From contig JACPDF010000022.1 in NCBI GenBank assembly GCA_016184145.1, forward strand, positions 1,542 to 65,541: a stretch of 64,000 nt of DNA. Direction: 5' to 3'. Numbering within the stretch: position 1 is the first letter of the stretch; every line of letters begins with the position of its first letter. The position numbers were made by a program, and so were the translations under genes. The notes under the pieces were generated by a model, which was not told the origin of the DNA, did not search any database, and worked only from the letters and a program-made list of their open reading frames with translations. Of this stretch, positions 35,983 through 56,720 are shown one piece after another. Source of the DNA: Candidatus Woesearchaeota archaeon (GTDB taxonomy: Archaea > Nanobdellota > Nanobdellia > Woesearchaeales > GW2011-AR4).

Positions 35983-38439
35983 TTAATCATTTATGATTTT
36001 GGCTACGCTGACTAATTTATCATTATCATCAAGCTTCATCAGCCTTACCCCCTGGGTGCTTCTTCCTATGACGGAAATCTGGGATATTGGCATCCTTATT
36101 GTTATCCCATTCATTGTTATAAGCATTATCTCGTCATTATCATCGACAGAATTTATTGAAATTACCTTTCCATTCCTTTCAGAGCAGATTATATTTTTAA
36201 CTCCTAAACCGCCCCTGCTTATCAGCCTGTATTCTGATATTTCTGTCCTTTTTCCATAGCCGTTTTCTGTTACAGTGAGCAGAGTCTTATCATCAGTCGC
36301 GACAACCATCCCTATCACATAATCATGTTCGGAAAGTTTAATCCCACGAACTCCCTGAGCAGACCTTCCTGTGGGCCTTACATCATTCTCGTTAAACCTC
36401 ACTGCTATGCCGTTTCCGGTAGCTAATATTATCTCCTTGCTGCCATCCGTAAGCTTTACGCCTATAAGGCTGTCGTTCTGCTCAAGGGATATTGCTATAA
36501 TCCCGGTTTTTCTTGGGTTTGAGTAGGCTGCAAGACCTGTTTTCTTTATTGTGCCATTCTTTGTGGCCATGATAAGATAATGGCTGCTGTCAAAATTCAT
36601 TACGGGTATGTATGCAGTCACATGCTCATTATTTTCCAGATTAACGAGATTTATTATAGCTTTACCTCTTGCCTGCCTTGATGCTTCCGGTATGTTGTAA
36701 ACCTTAAGCCAGTAAACCTTTCCCTTATTTGTAAACATCAGTATGTATGAATGGGTGCTTGCAATAAATATGTCCTTTACGAAATCCTCTTCTTTTGTTG
36801 TTGTGGCTATAAGCCCTTTTCCGCCGCGTTTCTGCTGCCTGTAAGCAGCAAGAGGCTGCCTCTTTATGTAGCCGGAATGGGTTATGGTTATCACGCAATC
36901 ATGCTTTTCTATTATGTCCTCTACTTCGAATTGCGATGCTTCTGACTGCATTATCTGGGTTTTTCTGCTGTCTGAATAATTCCCTTTAAGTTCAAGAAGC
37001 TCTTTTTTTATTATGTCCAAGATTTTTTGCGGCGATTGTAAGATGGACTTTAGCTCCTCTATCAGCTTGAGAAGATCTTTGTGCTCCTGCTTTACCTTTT
37101 CCTGCTCCAAAGATGTCAAGCGCTGCAATCTCATCTCTAAAATAGCAGTGCTCTGCTCTTTTGAAAGAGCAAAAGCTGATATTAATGCGTTGTTGGCATC
37201 TTCAACAGACTTGCTCTCTTTTATCAGCTTTATTGTCCTGTCCAGATTATCAAGGGCTATAATAAGGCCTTCAAGAAGATGAGCCCTATTCTGGGCCTTG
37301 TGCATATCAAACAAAGTCCTTTTTCTTACAATATCTTTTCTATGCTCAATATAGTGGCTTATTATCTGCTTTAATCCCAGCACTTTTGGTATGTTGTTCA
37401 CCAAAGCGACCATTATTATGCCAAATGTGACCTGCAGCCTTGAGTGCGTATAAAGCTGGTTTAGGATAACTTCCGGGTTAGAATCTTTTCTAAGCTCAAT
37501 CACAATCCTTATTCCATCCTTGTCTGACTCATCCCTTATATCTGATATGCCGTTGATTTTTTTGTCCCTCACCAGATCAGCAATATGGCTTATCATCTCT
37601 GCCTTGTTTACCATATAAGGAATTTCCGTTACAATTATCCTCTTCCTGTCTTTTATGTCTTCTGTCTCTGTTTTTGCCCTTACTATTATTTTCCCCCTTC
37701 CTGTCTTATAGGCACTTTTAATTCCGCTTGTGCCGCATATTATTGCTCCTGTAGGAAAATCAGGCCCTTTGATGTGCTGCATCAGCTGCTCTGGAGTGAT
37801 ATCAGGATTGTCAATCTGACTTATTACCGCGTTTATTGTCTCAGACATATTATGCGGGGGAATGTTTGTGGCCATGCCGACTGCAATCCCCGAGGAGCCG
37901 TTGACAAGCAGATTTGGGACTTTTGACGGCAGGACTAATGGCTCCTGGGATGTATTGTCAAAATTAGGCGCAAGCTTTACCGTCCTTTTTTCTATGTCCT
38001 GCAGCATCTCTTCCGCAAGCTTTGTCAATCTTGCTTCTGTGTACCTCATTGCGGCTGGATTGTCACCATCAATGCTGCCAAAATTACCCTGGCCGTCAAC
38101 CAAAGTATAGCGCATAGAGAAATTCTGTGCCATCCTCACAAGGGAATCGTATATTGCCGCATCGCCATGCGGATGAAATTCAGCCATAGTCCTTCCCACT
38201 ATGAAGGCTGATTTCCTGAATGGCTTATTGTGGAGCAAACCGGCATGGTACATTGAGTAAAGAATCCTGCGATGCACCGGCTTTAAGCCATCCCTTACAT
38301 CAGGCAATGCCCTACCAACAATAACAGACATAGAATAATCTAGGTAAGACTGCTTCATTTCATCTTCTATTATCCTTGGGATTATTATAGTTCCTGAGCT
38401 AAATTCCTGCTCTTTATTTTCATTAGTTTTTTCATCCAT
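35983..38439 (-). CDS. gyrA: DNA gyrase subunit A
   Basis: N-terminus [30 protein letters not shown] with the active-site Tyr region (AMRYTEARL) and C-terminal beta-pinwheel repeats; 818 aa. Confidence 0.9.
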
Positions 38440-38901: not shown

Positions 38902-39951
38902 TTATTGTTTTTCCTCTTCGCTTTCCCCCTTTTCTTCCATTGAGGCATCTAAAAGGTCTTTTGGCTCTTCTTCTGTTTCATTCACTTCTCTTTTTTGTTT
39001 TTCTGCAACTTCTTTGCCGCTTTCCGCTTCCTCGCCCTCTTCTTTTGGAGGGTGCAGCATTCTCTCTACTTTCCTGTCAATTATTTTTTCCATATCTTTG
39101 CTTACCTGTATGCCTTTGCCCTTGAATTTGGGCTTTTTCTTCTCTTCTTCTTTTTCTTCCAGGATTTTTTCATCTTCTTCTTTCATTCCCTTTATTCTTT
39201 CCTTTTCTTTTTCCTGCTCTTCTTCAGAAGGCTCGTCCACAACTTCAAGGCTCCCAAGCTTTTCCTTGTATTCCATTATTTCAGGATTTTCTTCTTCCAA
39301 GCTTTCTGCCACTTTATTTTCTGATTCTTTTTCGTTTTCAAGCTTATCCAAAGAATCTATCTGCTCCTTTATTCTTTCGTCTGTCTGCTCTTCTTCCATT
39401 GCCTTTCTTCTCTGCTCTTCCTTAATCGATTCTATTTCCTTTTCTTTTTCCTCTATGGCTCTTGCAATGCTCTGGAAGTCCTGGAACTGCTCCCTCAAAT
39501 TTTCTTGAGGCAGGTCAAAATATTCAAAGAATTTCTGGGTAAGCTTAATCAGATTCGTGCGGCCGTGCTTCTGCCTCGTTATGTAGCCCATCTCTTCAAG
39601 CTCCTTCAGATGGTCGTAAGCCTTGTTTGTTCTTATCCTTATTAAGTCTGACTGCTTTATTGGATACTTGAATGCTATTACAGCCAAAGTTTCCATTATT
39701 GTCCTGCTCAACTCTGTTTCCGTCACTATATTTCTTACTAAAGGAAGAAACTGCTCTCTTACAGTCAATTTCCAGAAATTGCCTTCATTTATGAGCATGG
39801 TGCTTGAATTCTTCTCGTGATATTCTTTCTTTAATTCCTCTAATGCTGCTTGCACTTCATCTTCCTTAGCCTTGGCTAATTTTGACAGTTCTTCCACGCT
39901 CATCTTCCTGCCTGAAGAAAAAAGCAATGCATCCAGTTTATTCTTGAGCAT
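38902..39951 (-). CDS. scpB: Segregation and condensation protein B (ScpB) with a long acidic C-terminal extension
   Basis: Tandem winged helices (LDALLFSSGRKMSVEEL...; TLAVIAFKYPIKQSDLIRIR...YITRQKHGRTNLI), then an E/K-rich tail of about 170 aa. Antisense ORFs 38995..39508 are rejected. Confidence 0.7.
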   Translation of the reverse strand: MLKNKLDALLFSSGRKMSVEELSKLAKAKEDEVQAALEELKKEYHEKNSSTMLINEGNFWKLTVREQFLPLVRNIVTETELSRTIMETLAVIAFKYPIKQSDLIRIRTNKAYDHLKELEEMGYITRQKHGRTNLIKLTQKFFEYFDLPQENLREQFQDFQSIARAIEEKEKEIESIKEEQRRKAMEEEQTDERIKEQIDSLDKLENEKESENKVAESLEEENPEIMEYKEKLGSLEVVDEPSEEEQEKEKERIKGMKEEDEKILEEKEEEKKKPKFKGKGIQVSKDMEKIIDRKVERMLHPPKEEGEEAESGKEVAEKQKREVNETEEEPKDLLDASMEEKGESEEEKQ

Positions 39952-40549
39952 TTTCCATCTCTTTTTTTACTAAGCTGTAAGAGCCGTTCTCCTCTTTTAG
40001 CTTGTTATCTTTTATCATATCATCTAAGAATATCTTGAGTTCTTCTGATTTTATGCCTGTCACTTTTGAGAGCTTTTCCCTATCAAGGCTGCCATATAAT
40101 AAGGATATAAGGATCATGTTCTTTACTGTTGTGTGCATGTTTTTCTTCAAAAATTCATTCTCATTCTTTTGTTTTTTGACAATCATATCAACATCATGCA
40201 GCCTTGCCTGTAAATCATTTACAAAATCTTCTATCATCGACCTGTCCAGATTATAAGATTCCGGCTTCAGTATCTGGACAGAAGAGGGCATATAATCAAA
40301 ACAGAAAGCTATTAGCTTCCTTATGCCTTTTACCACCATCTCCAGTTCTGCAAAAGTTGCCCATAAGCCTTGTTTTTCTTTGGCATCAGCAAATTCCTCC
40401 TTGAGGACTATAAGGTCTGAGTCCTGCTTTATCTTATCCACATATATCTTAAGGGCTTTTTCCACATGCCCTTTCGGCTTCCCAAGTACCTCTATTATGA
40501 CTTTGCACCTTATGTGGGTTTTCTCATCAGCAATTTTCAGTTCTGGCAT
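39938..40549 (-). CDS. Hypothetical protein upstream of scpB (possible kleisin-like partner; unproven)
   Basis: Overlaps the scpB start by 14 nt on the same strand. No ScpA signature recognised. Confidence 0.4.
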   Translation of the reverse strand: MPELKIADEKTHIRCKVIIEVLGKPKGHVEKALKIYVDKIKQDSDLIVLKEEFADAKEKQGLWATFAELEMVVKGIRKLIAFCFDYMPSSVQILKPESYNLDRSMIEDFVNDLQARLHDVDMIVKKQKNENEFLKKNMHTTVKNMILISLLYGSLDREKLSKVTGIKSEELKIFLDDMIKDNKLKEENGSYSLVKKEMENAQE

Positions 40550-40775: not shown

Positions 40776-42542
40776 TTATCTTCTCCAAATCAGTACAATG
40801 TTCAGAACAACAGAAAGAAATACCAAAAACATAAGAATAAGGTTTTTTGCCTTTTCAGTTGTCGACTCATAGACTATGCCATAATTGACGGCATTATTCG
40901 TTATTTTGTTTTTTATTCCATCATCAATATTAATTTCTTTTGCTTCCAATTCCTCTGGATTGTTATTTTCATCCTGATTGTTTTTAACAACTATGTCTTT
41001 TGTTATCTCATTGTTTGTTTTCTGGCCATTTTTATTTAATACAACTTTAAATTTGTAATTTCCCGGCTGCATGTTTTCCACCATATTGCTCAGTTCCACA
41101 ACCTGCAGCGAGTTTCTATTCAAGGTAAACTCTTTCATATTTTCTTCCCTTTCACCGGAATATGATTTTGAGCCCCTGTAAACATAGCTCCATAATTTTA
41201 TGTCCATATCCTCATCATTATTGTTGTCCAGAACTATTTTTGCGCTGAATTTTTTGTTAACATCAACAACTTCGTTAAAATCTTTCAATTCAAAATCAAA
41301 GCCTTTTGCTGCTAATTTTTTGCTTTCTATTATTTTTACATCGCACATCGAATCTGTGAGATCATCTATTCTGATTTCTTCTTCGTCCTGGGAATCCAGG
41401 CCTTCTGCCTTAATCGTGTAATCATCATTGTCAAATTTCCCATCGCAGTTAGGGTCTATTTGTACAGGAATTGTCAAAGAATAATTTGTATACTTTGATT
41501 CCAAGCCGGTTCTTGACTGCTTGCTTACCCTGTTGCCATTATTGTCTTCTATCCACACTGCAATACTCTCCTTGTTGGTGTTGCCCTTATAAGCGTTAAG
41601 CCTTACTCTTATTATCTGGCCGAACTTTGCCTGTTTGTCATTTCCAAGATCAAGCACATTTTCTATGTTTATTGATGATTTCTCATCCAATGGCTTTCCT
41701 TTTATTGTTATTATCTGCATGTCGAAATTATTTTCTATGTTTGCGTCATCGCATCCAGTTGTTATATTGGAATCCAAAATGTAAGATTTGCCTTCATCAA
41801 GATTTGGGGTGTATTCTGATGAGGTTTTTTGTGTTGTTATGGATTCGTTAGTAAATGGCTCGTATTCCCTTACTAGCTTTCCGTTAAGATCCTCTATCTT
41901 TGCCCTCATTGTAAAGTTAGTTGTTGTTCCGGATATCTTTGAAGCCCTTATTTTGAATGTAAAATCCGATGAGTTGTCAAACAAAGTCTTCGAGAGGATG
42001 AAATTTACCGCATAATCACATCCTTCATTTATTATGGCACTGCCATCATTGGGAAATCCTGGCGTGGGGTTTGACTTATGCAAAGAGCCGTTTAGGACAG
42101 CCCAGCTCAAGCCATCTGTAGTTGAATTATAATTTTTAACATCAACCAAATTTCCATTACTATCATACAAATAAAATGCTTCTCCGCTGTTGCTCAATCC
42201 ATTCCCTATAGAACTATCGTCAACATAAAGCCTTACAGCATCTGAACTTACATTAAAGTTGTTATAAACCCTTGTTGAGCCATCTGCTATTATTGCGAAG
42301 CCGTATGCAGGTATTACTGTTCCTTCCTTATTGTATAATCCCCCTTCTATTGTGTCATTGTCATTATTATCCCCGATAATCCAGTTGCTTGCATTTATGC
42401 CTGCGCTTTCATTGTTGTACAGCTCTATCCACTCATTTAGGCTTTCATCTGCTACCGGATCTGCCATTATTTCATTTATCATTAAGGCATCGGATATGCC
42501 AATAGACAATAAAAAAGCCAATAAAAGGAATAAAAATCCCAT
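40776..42542 (-). CDS. Secreted lamin-tail-domain (LTD) surface protein with C-terminal TM anchor
   Basis: Signal peptide, LTD pattern MINEIMADPVADESLNEWIELYNNESAGINASNWIIGDN, Asn/Asp-rich beta repeats and a C-terminal hydrophobic anchor plus RR. Confidence 0.65.
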   Translation of the reverse strand: MGFLFLLLAFLLSIGISDALMINEIMADPVADESLNEWIELYNNESAGINASNWIIGDNNDNDTIEGGLYNKEGTVIPAYGFAIIADGSTRVYNNFNVSSDAVRLYVDDSSIGNGLSNSGEAFYLYDSNGNLVDVKNYNSTTDGLSWAVLNGSLHKSNPTPGFPNDGSAIINEGCDYAVNFILSKTLFDNSSDFTFKIRASKISGTTTNFTMRAKIEDLNGKLVREYEPFTNESITTQKTSSEYTPNLDEGKSYILDSNITTGCDDANIENNFDMQIITIKGKPLDEKSSINIENVLDLGNDKQAKFGQIIRVRLNAYKGNTNKESIAVWIEDNNGNRVSKQSRTGLESKYTNYSLTIPVQIDPNCDGKFDNDDYTIKAEGLDSQDEEEIRIDDLTDSMCDVKIIESKKLAAKGFDFELKDFNEVVDVNKKFSAKIVLDNNNDEDMDIKLWSYVYRGSKSYSGEREENMKEFTLNRNSLQVVELSNMVENMQPGNYKFKVVLNKNGQKTNNEITKDIVVKNNQDENNNPEELEAKEINIDDGIKNKITNNAVNYGIVYESTTEKAKNLILMFLVFLSVVLNIVLIWRR

Positions 42543-42672
42543 TTTTAATCAATTTTTGAAAATTTGTATAAAAACTTTTCACTTTGGATTATGTTAGCTT
42601 CACCATTTTAAAATGATAATAAAAGTTTAATAAAGAATCTCTTTTTATTTATGGGAAAGAAGAGGTGCGGCT

Positions 42673-43365
42673 GTGGGGTTTTTAAAATTCTTAAAAAGGG
42701 ATAAAAGCAAAAATCTGGATGTAGATTTTGACAATTTTGATGTTCCGCCTATGCCTCCTGCGCCTTCAGGCATGGAGGGAAAGGATTTCGAGAATCTTCC
42801 AGAGTTGCCGGAATTGCCTGATTTTGGTGAGCCTGCTCCGGAGATGGAAAAGACGGAAGAGAAGAAAAAGCTGGTTTCTGAGGTTAAAATCCCATTGCCG
42901 CAAACAATGAGAATGGAGGAGGCTGTTTTGCAGCAACCTGAGAGTTTTAAGCCTATTGAGAATACTGAGGATATGAAAACTGATTTTGAGATGGAGATGC
43001 CGGAAGAACCAATGCCCAAAATTAAAGAGTATATTCCAGAGATGGAGCCTGAGCCTAGAAGAACAAGCAGAGCAGGCCCTTATGAAAGGTTTTCCAGGGG
43101 TGCTATCAGAGAAGAAATGAGCATTTTGGAGCATAAAGATGCGAAAGGGCCGGTTTACATGAGGGTGGACAAGTTCAGAAATGTTTTGAGGAACGTAAGC
43201 GAGATGAGAAGCGGCTTAAGAGCTTCAAATGAAATTCTTTCAAAGCTTACCCAGATTGATGCCAATGCAGACAAGGAATTTGAAAAATGGAAAAATATTA
43301 TGGTGGATATGCAAAAAAAGCTCGTTTTTGTCGATAAAACTTTATTCAAAGGTGATAAGAAATGA
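42673..43365 (+). CDS. Coiled-coil protein paralog 1: Pro/Glu-rich disordered N-terminus plus a conserved C-terminal module of about 70 aa
   Basis: The C-terminal module PVYMRVDKFRNVLRNV...EFEKWKNIMVDMQKKLVFVDKTLF aligns with ORF2 (PVFIKIEDYKDILDIL...ELEMWGSTLNEIEKKVESIDRTLF). Confidence 0.6.
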   Translation: MGFLKFLKRDKSKNLDVDFDNFDVPPMPPAPSGMEGKDFENLPELPELPDFGEPAPEMEKTEEKKKLVSEVKIPLPQTMRMEEAVLQQPESFKPIENTEDMKTDFEMEMPEEPMPKIKEYIPEMEPEPRRTSRAGPYERFSRGAIREEMSILEHKDAKGPVYMRVDKFRNVLRNVSEMRSGLRASNEILSKLTQIDANADKEFEKWKNIMVDMQKKLVFVDKTLFKGDKK

Positions 43366-43607
43366 AAAGCTATAAGACGGGAGAGGCTCCGGTATTCATA
43401 AAAATCGAGGATTATAAGGATATTTTGGACATATTGGAGCTCATAAAAGACAGGCTTAGCGAGGCAAAGAGGACTTTAGCTGATATAAATGAGATAAAAA
43501 ATGATGAGGATGCGGAATTAGAGATGTGGGGCTCCACATTAAATGAGATAGAGAAGAAAGTAGAAAGCATTGACAGGACACTGTTTGAGCCTGAAAGCAC
43601 TTATTAA
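43362..43607 (+). CDS. Coiled-coil protein paralog 2 (81 aa; the conserved module alone)
   Basis: ATGA start/stop overlap with ORF1, which indicates translational coupling. Confidence 0.6.
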   Translation: MKSYKTGEAPVFIKIEDYKDILDILELIKDRLSEAKRTLADINEIKNDEDAELEMWGSTLNEIEKKVESIDRTLFEPESTY

Positions 43608-43608
43608 A

Positions 43609-44013
43609 ATGGAAAAGGAAAGTGAAGATATACTTTTTGTTGGAATAAGGGAGCCAGGCGAGGTAAGGAGAAATATCCTGGAGTCTTTAAAGGATATAGT
43701 CGAGGTCCTGCAAAGGTTTGAAAAATTCAAGCATGCAAGGAAGGAGAAACTGTACAGTATAGGCAAGCTGAGCAATGACTTAAAGGGGATAAACAAGATA
43801 CTTTCTGATTTAAAAGCTGCTATTCCGGAGACAAAGCTAAGGGAAATAAAGATAAAAGCCGTTCTTAAGGAAGAAAAGAAAGAGAAGCAAAAAAAAAGAA
43901 GGCATGGCAAAAGATCCAAAGATGCTGAAGGGGAAAAAAGGCCGTCTACAGAAATTGAAAGGCTGGAGTCGGAATTGGGCGCAATAGAAGAGAAACTAAG
44001 GGGATTGCAATAA
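43609..44013 (+). CDS. Coiled-coil protein paralog 3 with a basic Lys/Arg-rich tail
   Basis: Starts 1 nt after the ORF2 stop (MEKESEDILFVGIREPGEVRRNIL...); a weaker match to the module. Tail KKEKQKKRRHGKRSK. Confidence 0.55.
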   Translation: MEKESEDILFVGIREPGEVRRNILESLKDIVEVLQRFEKFKHARKEKLYSIGKLSNDLKGINKILSDLKAAIPETKLREIKIKAVLKEEKKEKQKKRRHGKRSKDAEGEKRPSTEIERLESELGAIEEKLRGLQ

Positions 44014-44220
44014 ACTTATATTTGATTTTAATTTCTACTTTTTTTCTAATTTTAATCTGCTCTGCAATTCTAGTGCGAGGCGTCGCTTTCTGGGCATGCA
44101 CAAAAATCGGGGATTTTTTGGCATCCTGAAAATTCCCAATTTTCATGATATCGCTCCGCCTCGGTTATTTATTTGATTTAGCAATGTTTTTAAATTGAAT
44201 ATTGATTCTTGAAGCCTTAT

Positions 44221-49241: not shown

Positions 49242-49742
49242 ATGAATTCGATAGACAAATTTAAGAACGATAACGGGGGAATCGGCAGGGATAATATCAA
49301 GAAAATTATACCTTATGACGATCCTTTTCTGATGATAGACAGGGTAGTAAGCCTTGATAAAAAAAAGATTATAGCAGAGAAGGATGTAAAGGCTGATGAA
49401 TATTATTTCAGGGGCCATTTTAAAGGCTTTCCTATAATGCCTGGAGCATTGATTGTTGAAGGCCTTGGGCAAGCAGCTACATTGTTAATAAGATATAACA
49501 TACCAAGCCACGAAGAGAAAGATGTTTTGGCATATAAGATAAGAGGCGCAAAGTTTTTCAGGCCGACTTTTCCTGGTCATACATTGAGGTTTGAGGCAAA
49601 ACTTACTTTCAAGCTTAAAATGGCATGGTTTGTAAATGGGATTGTATATAGAAACGAGAAGGTAGTGTCAAAGGTAAAAATGGTTTTAGCTGTTGTTGAT
49701 AAAGATAAGTTTAGGGGAAAGTATAGCGGAAGAACTAAATAG
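49242..49742 (+). CDS. fabZ: 3-hydroxyacyl-thioester dehydratase, FabZ-like hotdog fold
   Basis: PYDDPFLMIDRV...YYFRGHFKGFPIMPGALIVEGLGQAA matches the FabZ signature. Confidence 0.75.
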   Translation: MNSIDKFKNDNGGIGRDNIKKIIPYDDPFLMIDRVVSLDKKKIIAEKDVKADEYYFRGHFKGFPIMPGALIVEGLGQAATLLIRYNIPSHEEKDVLAYKIRGAKFFRPTFPGHTLRFEAKLTFKLKMAWFVNGIVYRNEKVVSKVKMVLAVVDKDKFRGKYSGRTK

Positions 49743-49873
49743 ATAAGATAATTGTTTAGTTCTTCCTGATACACTGGGAAATGCTTTGCATTTCCGGTGT
49801 CCCAAAAATCTACGATTTTTGAGGATAGCAAACACACATCTATCTGGAAAGAAATATTTTGTGGGGGGTAAAA

Positions 49874-50878
49874 ATGCCTGTTTATATTAAAGGAGTCGGA
49901 ATGACGAAATTTGGCGTGCATACGAAAACCAGCCAGGAGCTGTGCTATGAGGCTGCCCTTGAGGCTATTCAAGATGCGGATATCCAGCCAGAAGACATAA
50001 ATGCCATTGTTATTTCCCGAGGGGATTCTGCAGTTGATGGAGAGAGGCAAAGACTGTTTCCTTCCGTAATAAGCAGCATTCTTCAGAAAGAAAACATCCC
50101 AATAATCCAAGTAACGGCTGCCTGCAGCGGCGGAGGGGCTGCATTGTGGGACGCTATCCATTCAGGCTATGATAATGTGCTGATAATTGGAGTAGAAAAA
50201 TTAACTCCCACTCCAACAAAAATAGTGACTGATAATCTGATGATGGCATCTGAAAGAATATACGAGCAGACCGAGGGCCTTAACTTCCCAGCCCAGAACG
50301 CTTTGATTGCCCAGCAATACATGATGAAATACAATGCTACAGAAGACGATCTTGCATTAGTGGCTTTGAAGAACCACGACAATGCTTTTCTAAACCCCAA
50401 GGCAAGGTTTATAGAGATTATCGGATCTTCATTGTATGCTGACAGGCTCCCTGCATTTGAAAGCAGGGATATGACATCATGGGAAGCTACGAAGCTTGCT
50501 GCAGCAGAGGCATATAAACGAGCAGGGATAACGCCAAAGGATGTTAATTTTGCAGAGCTGCATGATGCATTTACATCTGTGGAGCTAATGACATATGAAG
50601 ACCTTGGCTTTGCGGAAAATGGAAAAGGAAAGGTTCTGATAAAAAAGGGGATTACGAAAATTAATGGAGAATTGCCAGTAAATGCATCCGGCGGCTTAAA
50701 GGCGAAAGGGCATCCGGTAAGCGCCACAGGCGTTTCCCAGATTTATGAAATAGTAAGCCAAATGAGAAAACGAGCAGAAAAAAGGCAGCTAAACAATGTA
50801 AAAATCGGCTTGGCGCATAATGTTGGAGGTACCGGCAGCACTGCAACAGTCCACATATTAAAAAACATAGGTGGTTAA
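49874..50878 (+). CDS. Thiolase-family protein (acetyl-CoA acetyltransferase / SCP-x-like), paralog 1
   Basis: VYIKGVGMTKFG...TAACSGGGAALWDA (active-site Cys) ...NASGGLKAKGHPVSATGVSQIYE. A GGGGGT Shine-Dalgarno-like sequence precedes the ATG. Confidence 0.8.
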   Translation: MPVYIKGVGMTKFGVHTKTSQELCYEAALEAIQDADIQPEDINAIVISRGDSAVDGERQRLFPSVISSILQKENIPIIQVTAACSGGGAALWDAIHSGYDNVLIIGVEKLTPTPTKIVTDNLMMASERIYEQTEGLNFPAQNALIAQQYMMKYNATEDDLALVALKNHDNAFLNPKARFIEIIGSSLYADRLPAFESRDMTSWEATKLAAAEAYKRAGITPKDVNFAELHDAFTSVELMTYEDLGFAENGKGKVLIKKGITKINGELPVNASGGLKAKGHPVSATGVSQIYEIVSQMRKRAEKRQLNNVKIGLAHNVGGTGSTATVHILKNIGG

Positions 50879-52346
50879 TGTGATAATCAGATGGGTTTCA
50901 GAAGACGGGAAGAGAAAATGGATTTATCCTGTTGAGAAGGACTTATATTCCAAGGGCAGGATAATAAAACAGGTGAGCACAAAAGCAAAGGTCATTGGTA
51001 TAACCAAGGTCAATATTCCCTCGCCATTGCACCCCATTATCCCTTATTATGTCATGCTGCTGGAAGACAAATACGGAAACAGAATGCCAAAGAAAACAAT
51101 GAGAGAATGTAAGATTGGGGACACTTATGAGGTTAAGGCTGCTACAACTGATAATGCAGTTATAATAACAAAGATAAAATATGATGTAGAGGAATATTTG
51201 AAAGAATCTCTTAAGCTAGTCCACGCTCATGAGCTTGAGGCTGCTGATAAAATTCTCATAAAACCAAGCATAATAGAGGCTGCTTATGCATACCAGGCAG
51301 TCAACACGAATCCTAAAGTTATAGATGGGCTGATAAGTTACCTCAGGGAAAAGGGCATAGAGGATATTGCAGTTGGAGAGCAGGCTATGCTTGGCAATGA
51401 TGTTATTGATGCTGCAAATAAGGCAGGAATTCTTGATGTATGCAAAAAGCACAATGTGCCTTTTATTGATTTAAGCAAAGCAGAATATGCCGAAAAAACA
51501 TCTGACGGATTCAGCTTTAGGATTGCAAAAGATGCTATGGACAGAAAGGTGATAAATGCACCAGTGGTGAAGACAAATTCCCAGATTGGGATTTCAGGAG
51601 CAATGGAGAATATGATAAGGGTTACAGACGAGAGAACCCAGAAAAAGATGTTCGAGGAGGATATAGAAAAGAGCCTGCCAAAGCTTATAAAAGCGCTCCC
51701 GGAATTTTTAACTGTGGGAGATGCTACCATAGGCCTTCATGCTCAAGGCCCTACCTCACTAGGAGAGCCTGCATTCCTGAACATGCTGTTTATCAGCAAG
51801 AATCCTGTTGCTTTGGATTCCGTATTTGCTGAAGCTGGTTTGTTTAAAATGCCCCAATACCTGAAAGAGGCTGCTGCAATAGGTTTAGGAAGCAATAATG
51901 CCAGGGATATAGAGATTGTAGGGGACGAGCTGGAAGCCATAAAGCAGCACCTAAAATACCCGGAAAAAGATGTAACTTCCCACCCCCACATAAAACTCAT
52001 AGACGGAAAGGCTGATCCTTATATCTTTAATTCTGCTTTGAAAATGACTGCTAAGCTTGTAGGCCTGCTGGGCTATGAAATGTGGGTTGCAATAGGACTT
52101 CATTTTTCAGAAGAAGAACTTGCAGGAAAAAATAGGCTGGTGGCGTATGGAAAGGATGCAATCAAGAGGACAAGAGAACTTGGAGCGAAAACAATAGCAG
52201 AGATTCCTGATGATATAGATGATATGGAGAAAATAGTGCTATTAAAGAGTGTTTTGGAAAACAAAGAAAAAAGGAATATCACGGCAGCGGATAAGCTTAA
52301 ATCAAAAATTACTAGTATCGGAGCTAAAATCAAGGGCTCATTTTAA
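50871..52346 (+). CDS. Fusion protein: N-terminal DUF35-like OB-fold (thiolase-associated) and C-terminal DUF362-like domain
   Basis: N-terminus GRIIKQVSTKAKVIGITKVNIPSP...PYYVMLLEDKYGNRM...IGDTYEV matches the DUF35 OB-fold pattern without the Zn ribbon. The C-terminal ~380 aa contain ILIKPSII...NTNPKVIDGL, INAPVVKTNSQIGISGAMENM and DATIGLHAQGP, resembling DUF362 from memory. Confidence 0.5.
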   Translation: MVNVIIRWVSEDGKRKWIYPVEKDLYSKGRIIKQVSTKAKVIGITKVNIPSPLHPIIPYYVMLLEDKYGNRMPKKTMRECKIGDTYEVKAATTDNAVIITKIKYDVEEYLKESLKLVHAHELEAADKILIKPSIIEAAYAYQAVNTNPKVIDGLISYLREKGIEDIAVGEQAMLGNDVIDAANKAGILDVCKKHNVPFIDLSKAEYAEKTSDGFSFRIAKDAMDRKVINAPVVKTNSQIGISGAMENMIRVTDERTQKKMFEEDIEKSLPKLIKALPEFLTVGDATIGLHAQGPTSLGEPAFLNMLFISKNPVALDSVFAEAGLFKMPQYLKEAAAIGLGSNNARDIEIVGDELEAIKQHLKYPEKDVTSHPHIKLIDGKADPYIFNSALKMTAKLVGLLGYEMWVAIGLHFSEEELAGKNRLVAYGKDAIKRTRELGAKTIAEIPDDIDDMEKIVLLKSVLENKEKRNITAADKLKSKITSIGAKIKGSF

Positions 52347-52365
52347 TTACAACAGGTGTTTTATT

Positions 52366-53379
52366 GTGACATACATAAAAGGTATCGGGATGACGAAATT
52401 TGATGTTGACCAGAGAAGCTCTTATGAGAGAGTATACGAATGCGTAAATGATGCCCTTGACAGCGGCAATATCGGAATAGAGAATATAGATGTTATTTTT
52501 GTTTCCAATGCCGAGGCAGAATCAAACGGGGAAAGGCAGAAACACATTGGGCCTATGATGAGCAGCATGTTCCAGAAAAAGATGCCGATAGTCACTGTGC
52601 CTGCAGGCTGTGGCGGAGGAGGCACGGCACTATGGAATGCCATTCATTACCAGAAAAACAATAAGGAAAATAATATCCTGGTTATAGGTTTTGAAAAGCT
52701 AGTTGCAAATTTATCTGAAAGGGCGACAGATGAGATGCTTATGGGTGGTGAAAGGGTATACGAGCAAAATGAAGGCGTAATATTTCCAGCCCAGAATGCA
52801 TTAGTAGCGCAGCAATACATGATGAAATACAATGCTACAGAAGACGATCTTGCATTAGTGGCTTTGAAGAACCACGACAATGCTTTTCTAAACCCCAAGG
52901 CAAGGTTTACAGACATAGAGATAGCAGGCAGCGGATTAAGCACCAGCAATTTAGCAAGTTTTGAAAGAGAAGATATGACTTCCTGGGATTCTACAGTTAC
53001 TGCTGGAAAAATAGCCTATAAGGAAGCTGGCATTAAGCCAAAAGATATTGATATAGCTGAAGTCCATGATGCATTTACTCCTGTTGAGCTGATATCTTAT
53101 GAAGACCTTGGCTTTACAGGAAAAGGAAAAGGCAAGGACCTAATAAGGGAAGGATACACAAATTTATCAGGCAAGCTTCCAGTCAATACTTCTGGCGGCT
53201 TAAAGGCAAAGGGACATCCTATAAGCGCAACAGGCGTTTCCCAGATTTATGAGCTTGTTCTGCAATTGAGAGGTCAGGCAGGGAAAAGGCAGGTTGACAA
53301 TGTAAAAATCTGCTTGGCGCATAATATAGGAGGAGCAGGCAGCACTGCAAGCGTGCATATACTGAAGAAAGTTGTTTAA
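52366..53379 (+). CDS. Thiolase-family protein, paralog 2 (probable GTG start)
   Basis: TYIKGIGMTKFD...VPAGCGGGGTALWNA...NTSGGLKAKGHPISATGVSQIYE. aggtg lies 9 nt upstream of the GTG. Confidence 0.75.
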   Translation: MTYIKGIGMTKFDVDQRSSYERVYECVNDALDSGNIGIENIDVIFVSNAEAESNGERQKHIGPMMSSMFQKKMPIVTVPAGCGGGGTALWNAIHYQKNNKENNILVIGFEKLVANLSERATDEMLMGGERVYEQNEGVIFPAQNALVAQQYMMKYNATEDDLALVALKNHDNAFLNPKARFTDIEIAGSGLSTSNLASFEREDMTSWDSTVTAGKIAYKEAGIKPKDIDIAEVHDAFTPVELISYEDLGFTGKGKGKDLIREGYTNLSGKLPVNTSGGLKAKGHPISATGVSQIYELVLQLRGQAGKRQVDNVKICLAHNIGGAGSTASVHILKKVV

Positions 53380-53393
53380 ATTAGAAATAAAAA

Positions 53394-54806
53394 TCATAAT
53401 CTTGGATTTAAAATATGTATCGCTTTTCCCATTGTCGCTTCTGCAGCTTCCATCAGGCTCTCGCTTAATGTGGGATGTGGATGAATAGTCAATGCTAAAT
53501 CATCCAAAGTCGCTTTCATTTTTATTGCCAACGATGCCTCGCTTATAAGATCTGAAGCGTCTGAACCGATAATTTCCACGCCAATAATTTTATTATTTTT
53601 AGAGTCTGCTATTATTTTTACAAATCCTTCTGTGTCTGATTTTGTCATTGCCCTGCTTGAAACAGAAAAGGGAAATTTTCCCACTTTTACTTTTATGCCA
53701 TTATCTTCTGCATCCTTTTCTGACATCCCTACTGTAGCGATTTCCGGATCAGTAAAGATTACAGAAGGAACAACAGAATCTTCATATTTTTCTTTGTTGT
53801 TGGTTATTATTTCCGCAACAAACTTTCCCTGGTAGGATGCCTTGTGGGCAAGCATTGGGCCAATTGAAACGTCTCCTATTGCATAAATATTCCCATCATC
53901 TGTGATTAAATTTTTGTTTACATTTATGAATCCTTTATTGTCTAACTGCACTTTTGTATTCTCCAGGCCAAGGCCTTTTGTATTTGGGTACCTGCCTATA
54001 GCTACAAGCACTTTATCCGCTTCCAAGGAAATGCTTCCTTTTTCTTTTGAGCTTGCAATTATCTTGGTATTTTCAAATTTTTCAGCCTTTGTATCCAAGC
54101 AAATATTTACGCCCAGCTTTTCCAGCTTTTTATGAATAACCTCAACTATTGCCTTGTCAAATCCCGGAAGCAGCTGACCTGTCATCTCTATTATAGAAAC
54201 ATTGCTGCCAAGCTTTGCATATACTGTTCCCAGTTCTAGCCCGATATAGCCGCCTCCAATTACAACAAGGTTTTGCGGGATTTTGCCCAGGTAAAGAATT
54301 TCTGTTGAGCTTAGAATTTTGCTGCCATCAAACTTTAGATTGGGGATTTCCACTGGCTTTGAGCCAGTTGCTATGATTGCCTTTTCAAAATCAATATAAG
54401 AAATATCATTTCCATTGCTTATTTTTAGTTTGCTGGAGGATTCGAAGGCTGCAATACCTTTCACAACTTCGATATTATTGCCTTTGCATAGGTTTTCTAT
54501 CCCTTTGTTTAGTTTTGCTATTATGCTGTCTTTCCATTCCTGCATCTTTTGGAAGTCCATAGATACATTGTCAGCATTAATCCCCATGTTTGAGGCGTTT
54601 TTTATCCTGCTTAGGAAATCGGAAGCGTAAATCATAGCCTTGCTTGGTATGCAGCCATAATTAAGGCAGATGCCTCCAAGCTTATCGTCTTTCTCCACAA
54701 GAACTGTTTTTTTTCCGAGCTGGGCTGACCTAATAGCAGCAACATAGCCGCCAGGGCCTGCGCCTATTACTACAACATCAGCCTTTGCATTATTATTTTT
54801 TCCCAT
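53394..54806 (-). CDS. lpdA: Dihydrolipoyl dehydrogenase (E3, lipoamide dehydrogenase)
   Basis: FAD site VVVIGAGPGGYVAAIRSAQLG, redox-active disulfide GGICLNYGCIPSK, NAD site VVIGGGYIGLELG, and a C-terminal dimerisation HPHPTLSE motif. Start taken at MGKNNN. Confidence 0.85.
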   Translation of the reverse strand: MGKNNNAKADVVVIGAGPGGYVAAIRSAQLGKKTVLVEKDDKLGGICLNYGCIPSKAMIYASDFLSRIKNASNMGINADNVSMDFQKMQEWKDSIIAKLNKGIENLCKGNNIEVVKGIAAFESSSKLKISNGNDISYIDFEKAIIATGSKPVEIPNLKFDGSKILSSTEILYLGKIPQNLVVIGGGYIGLELGTVYAKLGSNVSIIEMTGQLLPGFDKAIVEVIHKKLEKLGVNICLDTKAEKFENTKIIASSKEKGSISLEADKVLVAIGRYPNTKGLGLENTKVQLDNKGFINVNKNLITDDGNIYAIGDVSIGPMLAHKASYQGKFVAEIITNNKEKYEDSVVPSVIFTDPEIATVGMSEKDAEDNGIKVKVGKFPFSVSSRAMTKSDTEGFVKIIADSKNNKIIGVEIIGSDASDLISEASLAIKMKATLDDLALTIHPHPTLSESLMEAAEATMGKAIHILNPRL

Positions 54807-55000
54807 TTTTGTTAATCTACTTCCACAATATTTAAATCTTCTCCTAGTATTTCGGAGGGTTGCGAAGGTTTGCTGGAGCAAACCTCGAAAATCCTTTTTT
54901 GATTTTCCGTTGCAATCCCTCCACTAGTGTGCGGGTACGCACAAATAGAAAGTTTAAAAAAGCCCTTAATTTTGCTCTTAGAATCGATACAATAAATAAT

Positions 55001-55984
55001 ATGGCCGATATAATGAGTTTACAACAATCAAAATCATGGAAGCCTGACAGGCCTGTTTCAAGGGGGGCTACAGAATTCCACAATGCGGTAATAAATGCTA
55101 CATGGAACCATGAATGCCTTGATTACCTCATATCTTTGGCTGAGCCAAACATCGAGGAAAATGATATTATAGTTGATTTTGGCGCTGGCACAGGCACTTC
55201 TGCAGCCAGAATTCTTGAAAAAATAAAGACCGGAATAAGACTATGGCTTGTTGACAATTCACCGGCGTGGCTGGGCAAAGCCTACGAAATTTTCGGAAAA
55301 ACCCCGAATGTCAGCTTTTTTGTTCTGGAGAAAAAAAATGGGGATGATGCTACCTTGTCTGAGACAGTGGGAAAAGAAACTGTGGATAATGTGCTTTCCG
55401 CCAATACAGTCCATTTGATCCCGGATTTGAAATCTACATTTAAGGGTATTGCCGAGGCATTAAAGCCAAAAGGCATCTTCGTTTTTAACAGCACGAACGT
55501 GACAAGAGAAGGAAGACCTGACGGAGCATTGATGCTGGATTCAACTGTTTACAGGGTGCATGACATTGCCATAGACATAATAAGGAGCGATCCAAGATAC
55601 AAAAAATACAGAAAAGATATTGACAACAAGATAGTCGAAGAAGCCCCGCAAAGGAACTTCATATTTCCGCAGCCTAAGCCGATTAGTGATTATTTGAAAG
55701 CGTTAAAGGATGCTGGTTTTGAGTCAATTAAGACCAATTATAAATGCATCAGGGTCAAGTATAATGAATACATTAAATTCCTAAGGGTCAAGAGGCTGCA
55801 GGCCGGAATGCTGCCGGAAGTTGGCGGAAAGAAACCAAGCCCTGAAGAGGAAAAAGACAGAGACGAGCTGGTAACAATGGCTTCTTTAAAGCTTTTTAAG
55901 GAATTAGAGGAAAATAATCCTCTTGCGGACAGCGAGGCTTGGCAATGCGAATGGGCTTATGTTTCAGCTGTAAAACCAGGTTAA
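55001..55984 (+). CDS. Class I SAM-dependent methyltransferase
   Basis: Motif I IIVDFGAGTGTSA and post-I acidic residue (LVDNS). Start taken at MADIMS (the annotated ORF extends 47 codons upstream). Confidence 0.65.
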   Translation: MADIMSLQQSKSWKPDRPVSRGATEFHNAVINATWNHECLDYLISLAEPNIEENDIIVDFGAGTGTSAARILEKIKTGIRLWLVDNSPAWLGKAYEIFGKTPNVSFFVLEKKNGDDATLSETVGKETVDNVLSANTVHLIPDLKSTFKGIAEALKPKGIFVFNSTNVTREGRPDGALMLDSTVYRVHDIAIDIIRSDPRYKKYRKDIDNKIVEEAPQRNFIFPQPKPISDYLKALKDAGFESIKTNYKCIRVKYNEYIKFLRVKRLQAGMLPEVGGKKPSPEEEKDRDELVTMASLKLFKELEENNPLADSEAWQCEWAYVSAVKPG

Positions 55985-55985
55985 A

Positions 55986-56720
55986 ATGCTAAAAGGAAAA
56001 ACTGCACTTATAACAGGAGCTTCGAGGGGAATTGGAGAATCTATTGCTATTGAGTTTGCCAAAAACCATGCTGATGTCATTATAAACTACTACAGCGACA
56101 AGCATGAAGCGCAGAAAGTTGTTGACAAAGTGAAAAAATATGGCGTTAACTGCGTTGCTGTGCAGGCCGATGTCAGCAAGGTTGATGAAGTAAAGAGGAT
56201 GGCTGATGAAATACAGAAACAATTCAAAAAAGTCGACATTCTTGTCAATAACGCAGGAATTGTAAAGGACAGAACATTGAAGAATATGACCCTGGATGAA
56301 TGGCATACTGTGATAAACACAAACCTCAACGGAGTTTTTTATGTGACTAAATTTATTTTGCCTTTGATACCAGAAGGGGGCAGGATAATAAGCATATCTT
56401 CCATTGTGGGGCAGTATGGAAATTTTGGGCAGAGCAATTACGCAGCTGCAAAAGCCGGAATCATAGGGTTTACAAAGTCACTTTCGAAGGAGCTTGGAAA
56501 GAAAAAGATAACAGTAAATGCAATCGCCCCAGGCTTTGTTAAAACAGCAATAACCAAGGACATACCTTTTTTCAGAAAAAAGCTGATAAACCATATGATA
56601 CCATTGAAAGAAGAGGCTATGCCGGAAGATATAGCTACTGTAGCAGTTTTTTTGGCTTCTGATAAATCAAGATACATAACCGGGGCAGTCATTAATGTTG
56701 ATGGCGGCCTGGCTATCTAA
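55986..56720 (+). CDS. fabG: 3-oxoacyl-[ACP] reductase-type short-chain dehydrogenase (FabG-like SDR)
   Basis: TGASRGIGESIA, NNAG, catalytic S...YAAAK, and PGFVKT. Confidence 0.8.
   Translation: MLKGKTALITGASRGIGESIAIEFAKNHADVIINYYSDKHEAQKVVDKVKKYGVNCVAVQADVSKVDEVKRMADEIQKQFKKVDILVNNAGIVKDRTLKNMTLDEWHTVINTNLNGVFYVTKFILPLIPEGGRIISISSIVGQYGNFGQSNYAAAKAGIIGFTKSLSKELGKKKITVNAIAPGFVKTAITKDIPFFRKKLINHMIPLKEEAMPEDIATVAVFLASDKSRYITGAVINVDGGLAI

Follow-up and report, generated by a model that had tools for sequence, protein, structure and literature searches.

What do three small, tightly packed genes encode in the genome of a Woesearchaeota archaeon, and do their products work together? The genes, here called the triad, were found in a 64,000 nt stretch of contig JACPDF010000022.1 from this DPANN archaeon, and this whole stretch is referred to as the window. 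The Woesearchaeota and their DPANN relatives are tiny, abundant archaea not yet in culture, and over half of their genes lack an annotation. To our knowledge almost nothing is known about the organisation of membrane, chromosome and division in these organisms. An earlier note on this DNA had read the triad as three paralogues that share a novel module and may form a hetero-oligomeric assembly.

Gene structure and conservation of the triad

All three genes are encoded on the forward strand. ORF1 (42673..43365) starts with GTG and encodes 230 amino acids; it is the candidate membrane-tether subunit, and 104 homologues have the same architecture. ORF2 (43362..43607; 221 homologues) encodes 81 amino acids and consists of the module alone with an LFEPES tail, while ORF3 (43609..44013; 101 homologues) encodes 134 amino acids, giving a total of 445 residues for the three proteins. 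The positions, the tight packing and the gap to the upstream gene are all as the earlier note had given them. ORF1 and ORF2 overlap in an ATGA at 43362-43365, and the TAA of ORF2 ends at 43607, one base before the ATG of ORF3 at 43609. The GTG at 42673 is the right start of ORF1, since the homologues have MGFLKFLKR as their conserved N-terminus; a GAGGTG is found at 42662-42667, 5 nt ahead of the start codon. An AGGTGA is located within ORF1, 9 nt upstream of the start of ORF2.

An AT-rich intergenic region of 130 bp (42543..42672) separates ORF1 from a divergent gene at 40776-42542, the product of which matches the Pfam family LTD (4.6e-14). TATA-like stretches are found upstream of ORF1 at 42622-42635 (AAAGTTTAATAAAG) and at 42643-42653 (TTTTTATTTAT), and the region is a putative ORF1 promoter as read directly off the DNA. 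A T7 run in a T-rich stretch of the forward strand (44039..44045), 26 nt past the stop codon of ORF3, is a possible archaeal oligo-T terminator. Scanning the locus for sigma-70 promoters gave nothing relevant and scanning for hairpin terminators gave no hits, but both scans use bacterial models that are not applicable to archaea.

The triad is a true operon and is conserved as a whole. In all of the 30 loci fetched the genes follow one another in the same order and are tightly spaced, the intergenic distances ranging from -38 to +24 nt with one outlier of 103 nt (locus L004), and no triad member is missing from any locus with adequate flank. The triad is also kept in divergent loci where the identity of ORF2 is only 49-59%, and ORF1 and ORF3 are down to 23-45% identity in lineages still carrying all three genes. 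A search of 544 sequences and of the window gave neither natural gene fusions nor tandem or extra copies of the module. The family comprises 3,422 clusters at 50% identity, and every labelled member belongs to the Woesearchaeota or Nanoarchaeota; a GTDB scan using ORF2 only covered 18 loci, all from close relatives. The mean column identity of ORF2 is 80% in the alignment of its homologues. Compared in the same genomes, ORF2 shows 80-88% identity, as against 84-87% for PCNA, about 70% for RNase J and about 62% for ScpB. ORF2 is thus conserved at the level of PCNA, in keeping with the role of a core subunit having several interfaces.

The recurrent neighbours of the triad are GyrA, ScpB and MJ0538 upstream, and RNase J and PCNA, in places with MCM, downstream. 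ScpB and the MJ0538-family gene are present in many loci, and RNase J and PCNA in nearly all of them, including the divergent ones. The triad and RNase J are separated by one or two variable genes and are found on separate transcription units. The neighbours differ in function, covering replication, RNA decay, phosphate transport and a surface protein, and the neighbourhood may simply be a gene order that related small genomes have retained. The 30 neighbouring genes that were annotated (26.7-60.4 kb of the window) include no FtsZ, SepF, CdvB or Vps4.

Protein families, paralogy and long helices

The earlier note recognised no named family, and this agrees with searches of Pfam, NCBIfam, PDB, PHROG and PADLOC, where none of the three proteins matched a family. 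A match to ESCRT-III or prefoldin had been put forward as a finding that would speak against novelty, and the profile scans gave neither. Snf7 and PspA_IM30 are absent from the matches listed at E <= 10 for the three proteins of the window. A scan of 89 family members at E <= 0.5 also has neither in its listing of the 25 families with most matches. Prefoldin and Prefoldin_2 are likewise not listed for either the window proteins or the family members, and the strand-then-helix layout found here differs from the helix-hairpin-helix of prefoldin. In Pfam and NCBIfam there is further no match listed to SepF (DUF552), DipB (DUF2073), ZipA, ZapA/B, EzrA or DivIVA; the triad proteins are predicted to be all-helical past a short strand. 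A profile search against PDB sequences returned only coiled-coil noise from viral fusion proteins and formins (E of at least 0.003). Foldseek searches of PDB with the AlphaFold models of ORF2 and ORF3 gave no matches, as expected since the models are single helices. The PHROG and PADLOC scans contained no meaningful match, and on this count the triad is not a phage or defence module. Literature searches for coiled-coil operons in Woesearchaeota or DPANN archaea and for MJ0538 retrieved nothing relevant. One JGI record names a homologue of ORF2 'EzrA', and this looks like a coiled-coil artefact. Judged from these searches the family is novel, and any function given to it here is putative.

The C-terminal part of ORF1 (residues 154-228; 43132..43356), with the strand PVYMRV followed by a helix of ~60 residues, is a true paralogue of ORF2. 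BLASTP aligns the two without gaps at 3e-11, hhalign gives 98.2% probability (E 6.3e-14) over 75 ungapped columns, and the family alignment of the ORF1 module and ORF2 is also free of gaps. Of the three paralogues claimed earlier this pair stands, while ORF3 is only architecturally similar. Pairwise BLASTP of ORF3 against ORF1 and ORF2 gives short pieces in differing registers (E 0.008-0.015), hhalign gives probabilities of 12.8% and 44%, and the module profile does not match ORF3 in HMMER even at E <= 10. The motif KK-[LV]-x-x-[VI]-D-[KR]-T-L-F, which had been ascribed to ORF3 as well, is absent from it. A greedy hhalign alignment of ORF3 to the module is collinear with the basic linker as an insertion (45% probability), and its score is 27.5, where column shuffles score 11.3 +/- 2.2 and the reversed alignment 18.5. 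As a sign of kinship this is suggestive only, and at the level of sequence ORF3 is not demonstrable as a third paralogue.

What all three proteins have in common is a layout, in which a short hydrophobic strand is followed by one heptad helix of 56-60 residues. The earlier '~70-aa module' is not a compact domain in the AlphaFold monomers, which form a short strand and one continuous helix of ~60 residues. In ORF2 the strand is PVFIKI, the helix spans residues 15-75 (pLDDT 84 in the model), and the LFEPES tail is invariant. ORF2 is strongly acidic (21 D/E vs 12 K/R), and a polar layer, K46/E49, is conserved in the middle of its helix; W56 is conserved as well, with W206 as its counterpart in ORF1. 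In ORF3 the corresponding region (residues 6-73; 43624..43827) contains the strand (D)ILFVGI, a long heptad helix at residues 16-71 (pLDDT 92-97) and an invariant LP(x)TKLR at the end, with I23, L24, E25, I30, L34, F37, E38, F40 and P73 being invariant. The best hydrophobic period is 3.50 for ORF2 and the ORF1 module and 3.45-3.5 for ORF3, and the heptad power of 78-110 exceeds the 99th percentile of shuffles (50-67). The heptad phase is near-constant over about 60 residues, including the polar KNDED middle, while the helix of ORF3 has a phase shift of about 50 degrees at its midpoint. Heptad periodicity over several heptads, as used to recognise a coiled coil, is accordingly seen in the ORF1 module, in ORF2 and in ORF3. 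The core of the module has Leu at a and Ile at d, a combination that tends to give bundles with more than two strands (a Harbury-type rule). A direct-coupling analysis of hairpin versus continuous helix (378 distinct module sequences, Neff about 191) was uninformative, as the top couplings were artefacts from adjacent residues, gaps and the division into ORF1 and ORF2 subfamilies.

ORF1 and ORF3 carry additional elements. The N-terminus of ORF1 (MGFLKFLKRDKK) forms a nearly invariant short amphipathic basic helix, GFLKFLKRDKS, at residues 2-12 (42676..42708). In an alignment (A1) of 34 ORF1 proteins of 180-297 aa over 406 columns, G2, F3, L4, K5, F6, L7, K8, R9 and K11 are each found in at least 90%, and D23 and P26 are invariant, while the linker is poorly conserved. 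Divergent members have an N-terminus of the same basic and hydrophobic type (MGLFKKKDK, MFKLFSKKSK, MGILKFFKKEK). This helix is a putative membrane-binding element. Against such a role, the N-terminal 11-mers have a modest hydrophobic moment (0.4-0.5), and at about 9 residues the helix is short. A conserved LDxPPxPP motif follows at residues about 22-30. The linker of residues 21-150 (42733..43122), with short motifs of the LPELPDFP type, varies in length and is probably disordered. It contains 21 Pro and 31 Asp/Glu and is thus as rich in Pro and Glu as had been claimed. Variation in linker length leads to ORF1 homologues of 144 to 353 aa. ORF1 contains no cysteine, and no window protein outside the triad was found to have the module or an N-terminus of the MGFLKFLKR type.

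In ORF3 the long helix is followed by a polybasic linker (residues 76-112; 43834..43944) of variable sequence and low model confidence. Its 17 K/R in 37 residues correspond to the basic stretch noticed earlier, and the net charge of the linker is at least +5 in 95 of 104 homologues, the median being +7. One lineage only (L018, L019) has a C2H2-like zinc finger inserted in the linker, with the pattern C-x2-C-x12-H-x3-5-H and a full-length match to zf-C2H2 (23 positions) at 20-22 bits vs the Pfam cut-off of 25; the pattern is missing from ORF3 of the window. The protein ends in a conserved leucine-zipper-like helix (TEIERLESELGAIEEKLRGLQ; residues 113-134; 43945..44010), modelled as helical at residues 115-133, where L119, L123, I126, E127, K129, L130 and L133 are invariant. 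When compared using hhalign, this helix resembles the second half of the ORF1/ORF2 module.

A proposed membrane-associated complex and its alternatives

Long helices of such strong heptad periodicity are naturally read as parts of a hetero-oligomeric coiled-coil assembly. The assembly proposed earlier is retained in this form, but as one made from two paralogues and one similar protein. We give a probability of about 0.5 to the triad being a membrane-associated heteromeric coiled-coil complex. The packing and strict co-conservation of the genes, the ORF1-ORF2 paralogy, the PCNA-like constraint on ORF2, the invariant N-terminus of ORF1, the retained basic charge of the ORF3 linker, the finger inserted there in one lineage and the recurrent neighbours are in favour of it, while the functional mix of these neighbours, the lack of FtsZ, SepF, CdvB and Vps4 among the 30 annotated genes and the sub-threshold scores of the zinc finger count against it. 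The AlphaFold models are monomers, and monomer models of long helices say little about binding among the three; we infer both the formation of the complex and its stoichiometry. The three proteins would be subunits of one co-translated complex specific to Woesearchaeota-type DPANN archaea, in which every subunit has a short hydrophobic strand at its N-terminus followed by a helix of about 8 heptads, or roughly 9 nm, and the helices may bundle in parallel. ORF2 would be the bare helix and invariant core. ORF1, its paralogue, would be carried on a long flexible Pro/Glu-rich linker that begins with the amphipathic basic helix, and this helix might dock the complex to the membrane from the cytoplasmic side. 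ORF3 would supply the third long helix, and its polybasic linker may bind a polyanion, either DNA, RNA or acidic lipid; the linker could equally well bind acidic lipids. The zipper helix at the C-terminus of ORF3 might either bring in a partner or turn back to add a fourth strand. Built in this way, the complex would serve as a scaffold or tether at the membrane periphery. The cytoskeletal, division or envelope role suggested by the earlier note would follow from the architecture only. The likeliest role would be in division or chromosome handling, an assignment in which we have low confidence.

The polybasic linker and the C2H2-like insertion would also suit a complex centred on nucleic acids and lacking a membrane role, for instance an accessory to chromatin, SMC or RNA processing, in which the N-terminus of ORF1 is a protein-binding peptide. 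The presence of ScpB, GyrA, PCNA, MCM and RNase J nearby, with RNase J and PCNA so regularly downstream, is in favour of this. Still, ORF3 is the only basic protein of the three, whereas ORF2 is strongly acidic, the invariant F/L and K/R residues of the ORF1 N-terminus are most simply explained by a membrane-targeting helix, and variable genes and separate transcription units lie between the triad and RNase J. This explanation is therefore considered unlikely. A link to the LTD gene had also been claimed. The two genes are a divergent pair with a shared 130-bp region, and in the majority of the closer loci an LTD homologue adjoins the triad. The triad might then be a cytoplasmic adaptor that from the inside anchors or positions the LTD protein, a C-terminally membrane-anchored adhesin of an envelope or host-attachment apparatus. 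However, the link is lost in more distant loci, since unrelated genes replace the LTD neighbour in L023 and L025-L030 while the triad is intact. The LTD protein also evolves much faster (57-79% identity vs 74-88% for ORF2), and there is no sign of a transmembrane or secreted part in the triad, making such an adaptor quite improbable.

It might further be argued that DPANN genomes are dense, with overlapping genes being common, and that the triad encodes three separate small proteins, for instance regulators, that are merely co-transcribed and share no complex. The strict co-occurrence and the fixed order and spacing, which persist although ORF1 and ORF3 have diverged to such low identities, argue against this, and so does the interaction-type module common to ORF1 and ORF2. 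Isolated amphipathic heptad helices of 60 residues are moreover not stable alone. We find this explanation hard to credit. The least probable alternative, for which we see very little chance, is a membrane-remodelling polymer like ESCRT-III or PspA, with the C-terminal helix of ORF3 recruiting an AAA ATPase in the manner of a MIM. Such a polymer would explain an MGxF/L-type N-terminal amphipathic helix, the clustering of several small helical paralogues in a single operon and the ExxLxxKLxxL-like terminal helix of ORF3; the N-terminus of ORF1 may be comparable to those of ESCRT-III proteins and the ORF3 helix to MIM1. On the other hand, Snf7 and PspA_IM30 are not among the matches listed in the scans described above, the PDB profile search was negative, the models have one continuous helix with an unbroken heptad phase at its middle and not an alpha1-alpha2 hairpin, ORF2 and ORF3 are 81-134 aa long as compared to about 200, and the 30 annotated neighbours include no Vps4/CdvC-like gene.

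Relation to known systems and significance

The membrane-associated complex preferred here has some likeness to known tethers. CdpC (HVO_0399), the membrane anchor of FtsZ1 in Haloferax volcanii, is reported to have an N-terminal amphipathic membrane-binding helix, a long disordered linker that evolves fast, and a C-terminal domain for interaction that is conserved; its two terminal domains carry zinc fingers that it needs for function (10.64898/2026.07.16.738847). ORF1 displays the same three-part layout in all homologues, with a predicted membrane helix. In contrast to CdpC, ORF1 lacks cysteines and any Zn-ribbon match, no sequence similarity was found, and CdpC is a single protein while ORF1 belongs to a three-gene coiled-coil operon. 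The Dip/Arco system, a recently discovered archaeal system for divisome positioning, is reported to be encoded by a three-gene operon near replication genes, comprises a Ras-like GTPase, a SepF-like DUF2073 protein and a Zn-ribbon/IDR protein, and is among DPANN archaea reported in Nanohaloarchaeota only. The operon structure, the replication genes nearby and the amphipathic membrane-binding helices, which are only predicted for the triad, are similar, but none of the domains of the Dip/Arco proteins so described is found in the triad. The triad is not described in the papers on these two systems, the components of which have different domains.

SepF, ZipA, FtsA and EzrA tether the division ring to the membrane by means of a short amphipathic or transmembrane anchor, a flexible linker and an interaction domain, which resembles ORF1, and ZapB is, like the triad proteins, a small coiled-coil protein (81 aa, entirely coiled-coil). 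The triad differs in having no profile match listed to SepF, ZipA, EzrA or ZapB and no FtsZ gene nearby. With ESCRT-III and PspA/Vipp1 the triad has in common paralogues that are small and helical, an amphipathic helix at the N-terminus and possibly a recruiting helix at the C-terminus, while the triad proteins lack a profile match, have a single continuous helix, are about half the size and have no Vps4 in sight nearby. The helices of ~60 residues (16-17 core layers) with uninterrupted heptad register, the polar layer at the middle of ORF2 and the up to four helices that three proteins may provide bring SNAREs to mind. V-SNARE_C was matched by 7 of 54 family members (best E 0.041) and the syntaxin-6 N-domain (STX6) by 9 of 35 (best E 3.8e-4), in both cases below the gathering score and to be read as coiled-coil noise. 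The triad differs from SNAREs in lacking a transmembrane anchor, the R/Q zero layer (K/E in ORF2) and an NSF/SNAP-like partner, and we know of no endomembrane system in DPANN archaea.

The triad stands out by its strict co-inheritance, its about 3,400 clusters at 50% identity and an 81-residue core constrained like PCNA, and with 445 residues it is a small and tractable target. In its most far-reaching form, which we consider speculative and unlikely, the triad would be the core of a so far unrecognised DPANN-specific machine, in which ORF1 attaches a heteromeric parallel bundle to the membrane and ORF3 connects it to the chromosome or to some other polyanionic structure for segregation or division, unrelated to FtsZ tethers, ESCRT-III, Min/Dip and SMC adaptors. 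Such a machine would, if true, serve ultra-small archaea that lack most of the known divisome accessories. If the triad is not a tether, it still adds three new protein families; if it does tether DNA or a division apparatus to the membrane, it would represent a new class of component in archaeal cell biology.

Organisation and conservation of the triad

The three adjoining forward-strand genes of this Candidatus Woesearchaeota MAG, here called the triad, are tightly packed. ORF1 (42673-43365; 230 aa) starts with GTG, with GAGGTG five bases upstream, while the ATG of ORF2 (43362-43607; 81 aa) overlaps the ORF1 stop codon as ATGA and has AGGTGA 9 nt upstream. ORF3 (43609-44013; 134 aa) begins one base past the ORF2 stop codon and is followed by a run of seven T (44039-44045). 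An AT-rich spacer of 130 bp separates ORF1 from the divergent LTD gene (40776-42542), which encodes a surface protein with a lamin-tail domain (4.6e-14). Checked against the window sequence, the coordinates and gene junctions described in the earlier note were correct. ORF2 and ORF3 are found exactly in the protein collection as HYU50_02410 and HYU50_02415. ORF1 has no exact entry there; its best full-length match is 73% identical and a 145-aa fragment 99%, and the deposited annotation may lack the GTG-started gene or place its start wrongly. Antisense ORFs of 122-126 aa cross the triad on the minus strand (42645-43019, 42766-43134, and 43539-43919), but since the conserved proteins are those of the forward strand, these are probably artefacts of coding-strand composition.

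Word-seeded searches gave 221 cluster representatives for ORF2, 104 for ORF1, and 101 for ORF3. An exhaustive HMMER search with a joint ORF1+ORF2 profile found 3,422 clusters (50% identity) at E <= 1e-3, and 1,480 at E <= 1e-10; among the matches listed, all those with a named organism are from Woesearchaeota or Nanoarchaeota. The order ORF1-like, ORF2-like, ORF3-like is kept in all 30 loci compared, wherever the contig allows, even where identity to the window proteins is 49-59% for ORF2 and 23-45% for ORF1 and ORF3. Between adjacent genes as called, overlaps reach 38 nt and gaps 24 nt, apart from a single outlier of 103 nt (L004). The triad is a real, conserved, lineage-specific operon encoding three uncharacterised protein families.

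When window proteins are compared with their counterparts in one and the same set of loci, identities are 74-88% for ORF2, 81-87% for PCNA, 69-75% for RNase J, 59-70% for ScpB, 45-56% for the ORF1 module (described below), and 43-56% for ORF3. The 81-residue helix of ORF2 is thus as constrained as the sliding clamp, which suggests that it makes contacts on almost all of its faces.

Some taxonomic labels are at odds with this distribution. Six loci titled 'uncultured Methanosarcinales archaeon' (L006, L008, L009, L014, L017, and L020; GTDB records of binchicken assemblies) carry a Woesearchaeota triad with 57-88% ORF2 identity, mostly with RNase J/PCNA/LTD synteny, and their label looks wrong. 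A contig labelled SAR324 cluster bacterium (NVSR01000018.1; L016, 5584-6198) has at its very end an in-frame fusion in which an unrelated N-terminal portion precedes a stretch resembling ORF2 (residues 14-78, 83% identity); a chimeric contig or bin contamination is the most likely cause.

Relationships and architecture of the proteins

A module of about 70 residues, predicted to consist of a short strand and a long helix, makes up the C-terminus of ORF1 and the whole of ORF2. ORF1 residues 154-228 align with ORF2 without gaps (BLASTP E 3e-11, 24% identity, 61% positives), comparison of the two family alignments by hhalign gives 98.2% probability over 75 columns (E 6.3e-14), and the module is also free of gaps in a joint MAFFT alignment of 54 sequences. 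When it comes to ORF3, BLASTP against ORF1 and ORF2 gave short pieces only, in inconsistent registers, hhalign gave 12.8% against ORF2 and 44% against ORF1, and the module HMM did not recover it from the window even at E <= 10. Under greedy hhalign settings, ORF3 residues 31-70 and 111-134 are collinear with the two halves of the module, the basic linker being an insertion at its polar centre. The score of this alignment is 27.5 (probability 45%), as compared to 11.3 +/- 2.2 (maximum 16.9) for 60 column shuffles and 18.5 for the reversed alignment, a hint that ORF3 and the module may have a very distant common origin. The earlier description of three coiled-coil paralogues is largely accurate and holds for ORF1 and ORF2, while the paralogy of ORF3 was overstated; the triad consists of two paralogues and a third protein sharing their general layout.

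AlphaFold2 models built on the family alignments give ORF2 a short extended segment, APVFIKI, followed by a continuous helix at 15-75 (mean pLDDT 84). In ORF3 they show an extended ILFVGI and a helix at 16-71 (pLDDT 92-97), then a basic region of low confidence before the terminal helix at 115-133. When hydrophobicity is averaged over each family, the strongest period is exactly 3.50 residues for the ORF1 module and for ORF2 and 3.45 for ORF3, and its power exceeds the 99th percentile of shuffles. The heptad phase of ORF1 and ORF2 is near-constant across 60 residues, and the register therefore crosses the conserved polar middle unbroken (K46/E49 in 'IKNDEDAEL' of ORF2), which speaks for a single long coiled-coil helix and against a hairpin. 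In ORF2, position a is taken by Leu (25, 32, 39, 53, 60, and 74) or Val (67), and position d mostly by Ile (21, 28, 42, 63, and 70), with A35 and an invariant W56. Ile at d combined with Leu at a favours bundles of more than two strands.

The ORF1 N-terminus, MGFLKFLKR(D/E)KK, is nearly invariant among homologues, distant ones starting with MGLFKKKDK, MFKLFSKKSK, or MGILKFFKKEK. As a helix it would have F3/L4/F6/L7 on one face, opposite K5/K8/R9, with a computed hydrophobic moment of only 0.4-0.5 for the 11-mer. It is followed by an LDxPPxPP motif and then by LPELPDFP-like motifs within a Pro/Glu-rich stretch that is free in length and sequence (proteins of 144-353 aa). Although the ORF3 linker varies in sequence, 95 of 104 distinct homologues have a polybasic one (net charge at least +5; median +7), and TE(L/I)E(K/R)LESELxAIExKLxxL in the C-terminal helix is among the most conserved parts of the protein. 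In one lineage (L019 and L018) the linker contains FKCDRCDKEFKSRQSLTKHHKLH, which scores 20-22 bits against full C2H2 zinc-finger models, just below the cut-off. The ORF3 homologues with this C2H2-like finger lie at 6212-6772 in L019 and at 4168-4371 plus 4408-4791 in L018, where the two ORFs reflect a frameshift, a sequencing error, or a real split.

Genomic neighbourhood

In the window the triad is preceded by the LTD gene, an MJ0538-family gene overlapping ScpB, and GyrA, and followed by genes for an EpsG-like membrane protein, RNase J, and PCNA. With one or two variable genes in between, RNase J and PCNA also lie downstream in nearly all of the loci, including the most divergent, while ScpB/MJ0538/GyrA and LTD are frequent upstream and lost in several loci. 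None of FtsZ, SepF, CdvB, and Vps4 is among the 30 annotated neighbouring genes (window 26.7-60.4 kb). Such neighbours speak mildly for a role related to DNA or division, but they may also reflect inherited gene order.

Several neighbours deserve mention in their own right. Next to GyrA (35983-38439), ScpB (PF04079, 5.9e-34) shares 14 nt with a gene for 203 aa (38902-40549 for the pair, minus strand) that has no match in the local Pfam copy; its counterpart in related loci carries the precomputed assignment PF27325 'MJ0538'. Most loci have this pair at the place expected for the ScpA kleisin, and the MJ0538-family gene may therefore encode a divergent kleisin or partner. A MoxR-type AAA+ ATPase gene and a VWA/DUF58 gene form an overlapping pair (27562-29665, minus strand) that two distant loci also have within a few genes of the triad (L025, 7256-9473; L026, 6550-8326), and a single divergent locus (L029, 6771-7586) has a gene for a ParA/MinD-family ATPase three genes upstream of the triad. 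A bacterial-type NAD-dependent glycerol-3-phosphate dehydrogenase (59452-60444, minus strand; GpsA domains 5e-59 and 1e-53) is present in this archaeon, and near it are a FabA-like dehydratase, a DUF362 gene between two thiolase-like genes, and an SDR/enoyl-ACP-reductase-like gene (49242-56720), which together hint at bacterial-style lipid or fatty-acid metabolism.

A possible complex and its alternatives

Searched singly against Pfam and NCBIfam, the three proteins and 89 family members gave only sub-threshold coiled-coil noise, including NPV_P10, IFT20, SKA1, syntaxin-6 N-domain, V-SNARE_C, and laminin II; Snf7, PspA, prefoldin, SepF, ZapA/B, and DivIVA are absent among the matches listed. 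PDB-sequence profile searches, Foldseek, PHROG, and PADLOC were all negative for the triad, and in a literature check the archaeal Dip/Arco system proved unrelated. The module had not been recognised as any named family in the earlier note, which agrees with the lack of a confident ESCRT-III or prefoldin match, and judged by sequence the three families are new. In architecture they come closest to the membrane-tethered coiled-coil scaffold among known kinds. [quoted passage not shown]

We estimate a probability of about one half that the triad proteins form a heteromeric parallel coiled-coil complex, because of their strict co-inheritance, translational coupling, shared interaction-type module, matching-length heptad helices, and one ultra-conserved minimal subunit. 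In such a complex the invariant basic amphipathic N-terminus of ORF1 would bind membrane on a long flexible tether, the conserved polybasic linker of ORF3, to which one lineage adds a C2H2-like finger, would contact nucleic acid or acidic lipid, and the free C-terminal zipper helix of ORF3 could serve as a fourth strand or to recruit a partner. Other readings are possible, each with less support. An ESCRT-III-like polymer would fit the amphipathic N-terminus of ORF1, and has the profile searches and the single continuous helix of the models against it; an adaptor for the LTD protein would fit the divergent gene pair of the window, less so the loci that have lost LTD. A purely nucleic-acid complex would draw on the ORF3 linker and make the ORF1 N-terminus a protein-binding peptide, and unrelated co-transcribed proteins would sit poorly with the strict co-occurrence of the three genes.

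For the heteromeric complex, a role in division or chromosome handling is the best guess, albeit a doubtful one, and the cytoskeletal, division or envelope-associated assembly suggested in the earlier note is likewise hypothetical. The triad family is large, highly constrained, and tractable.
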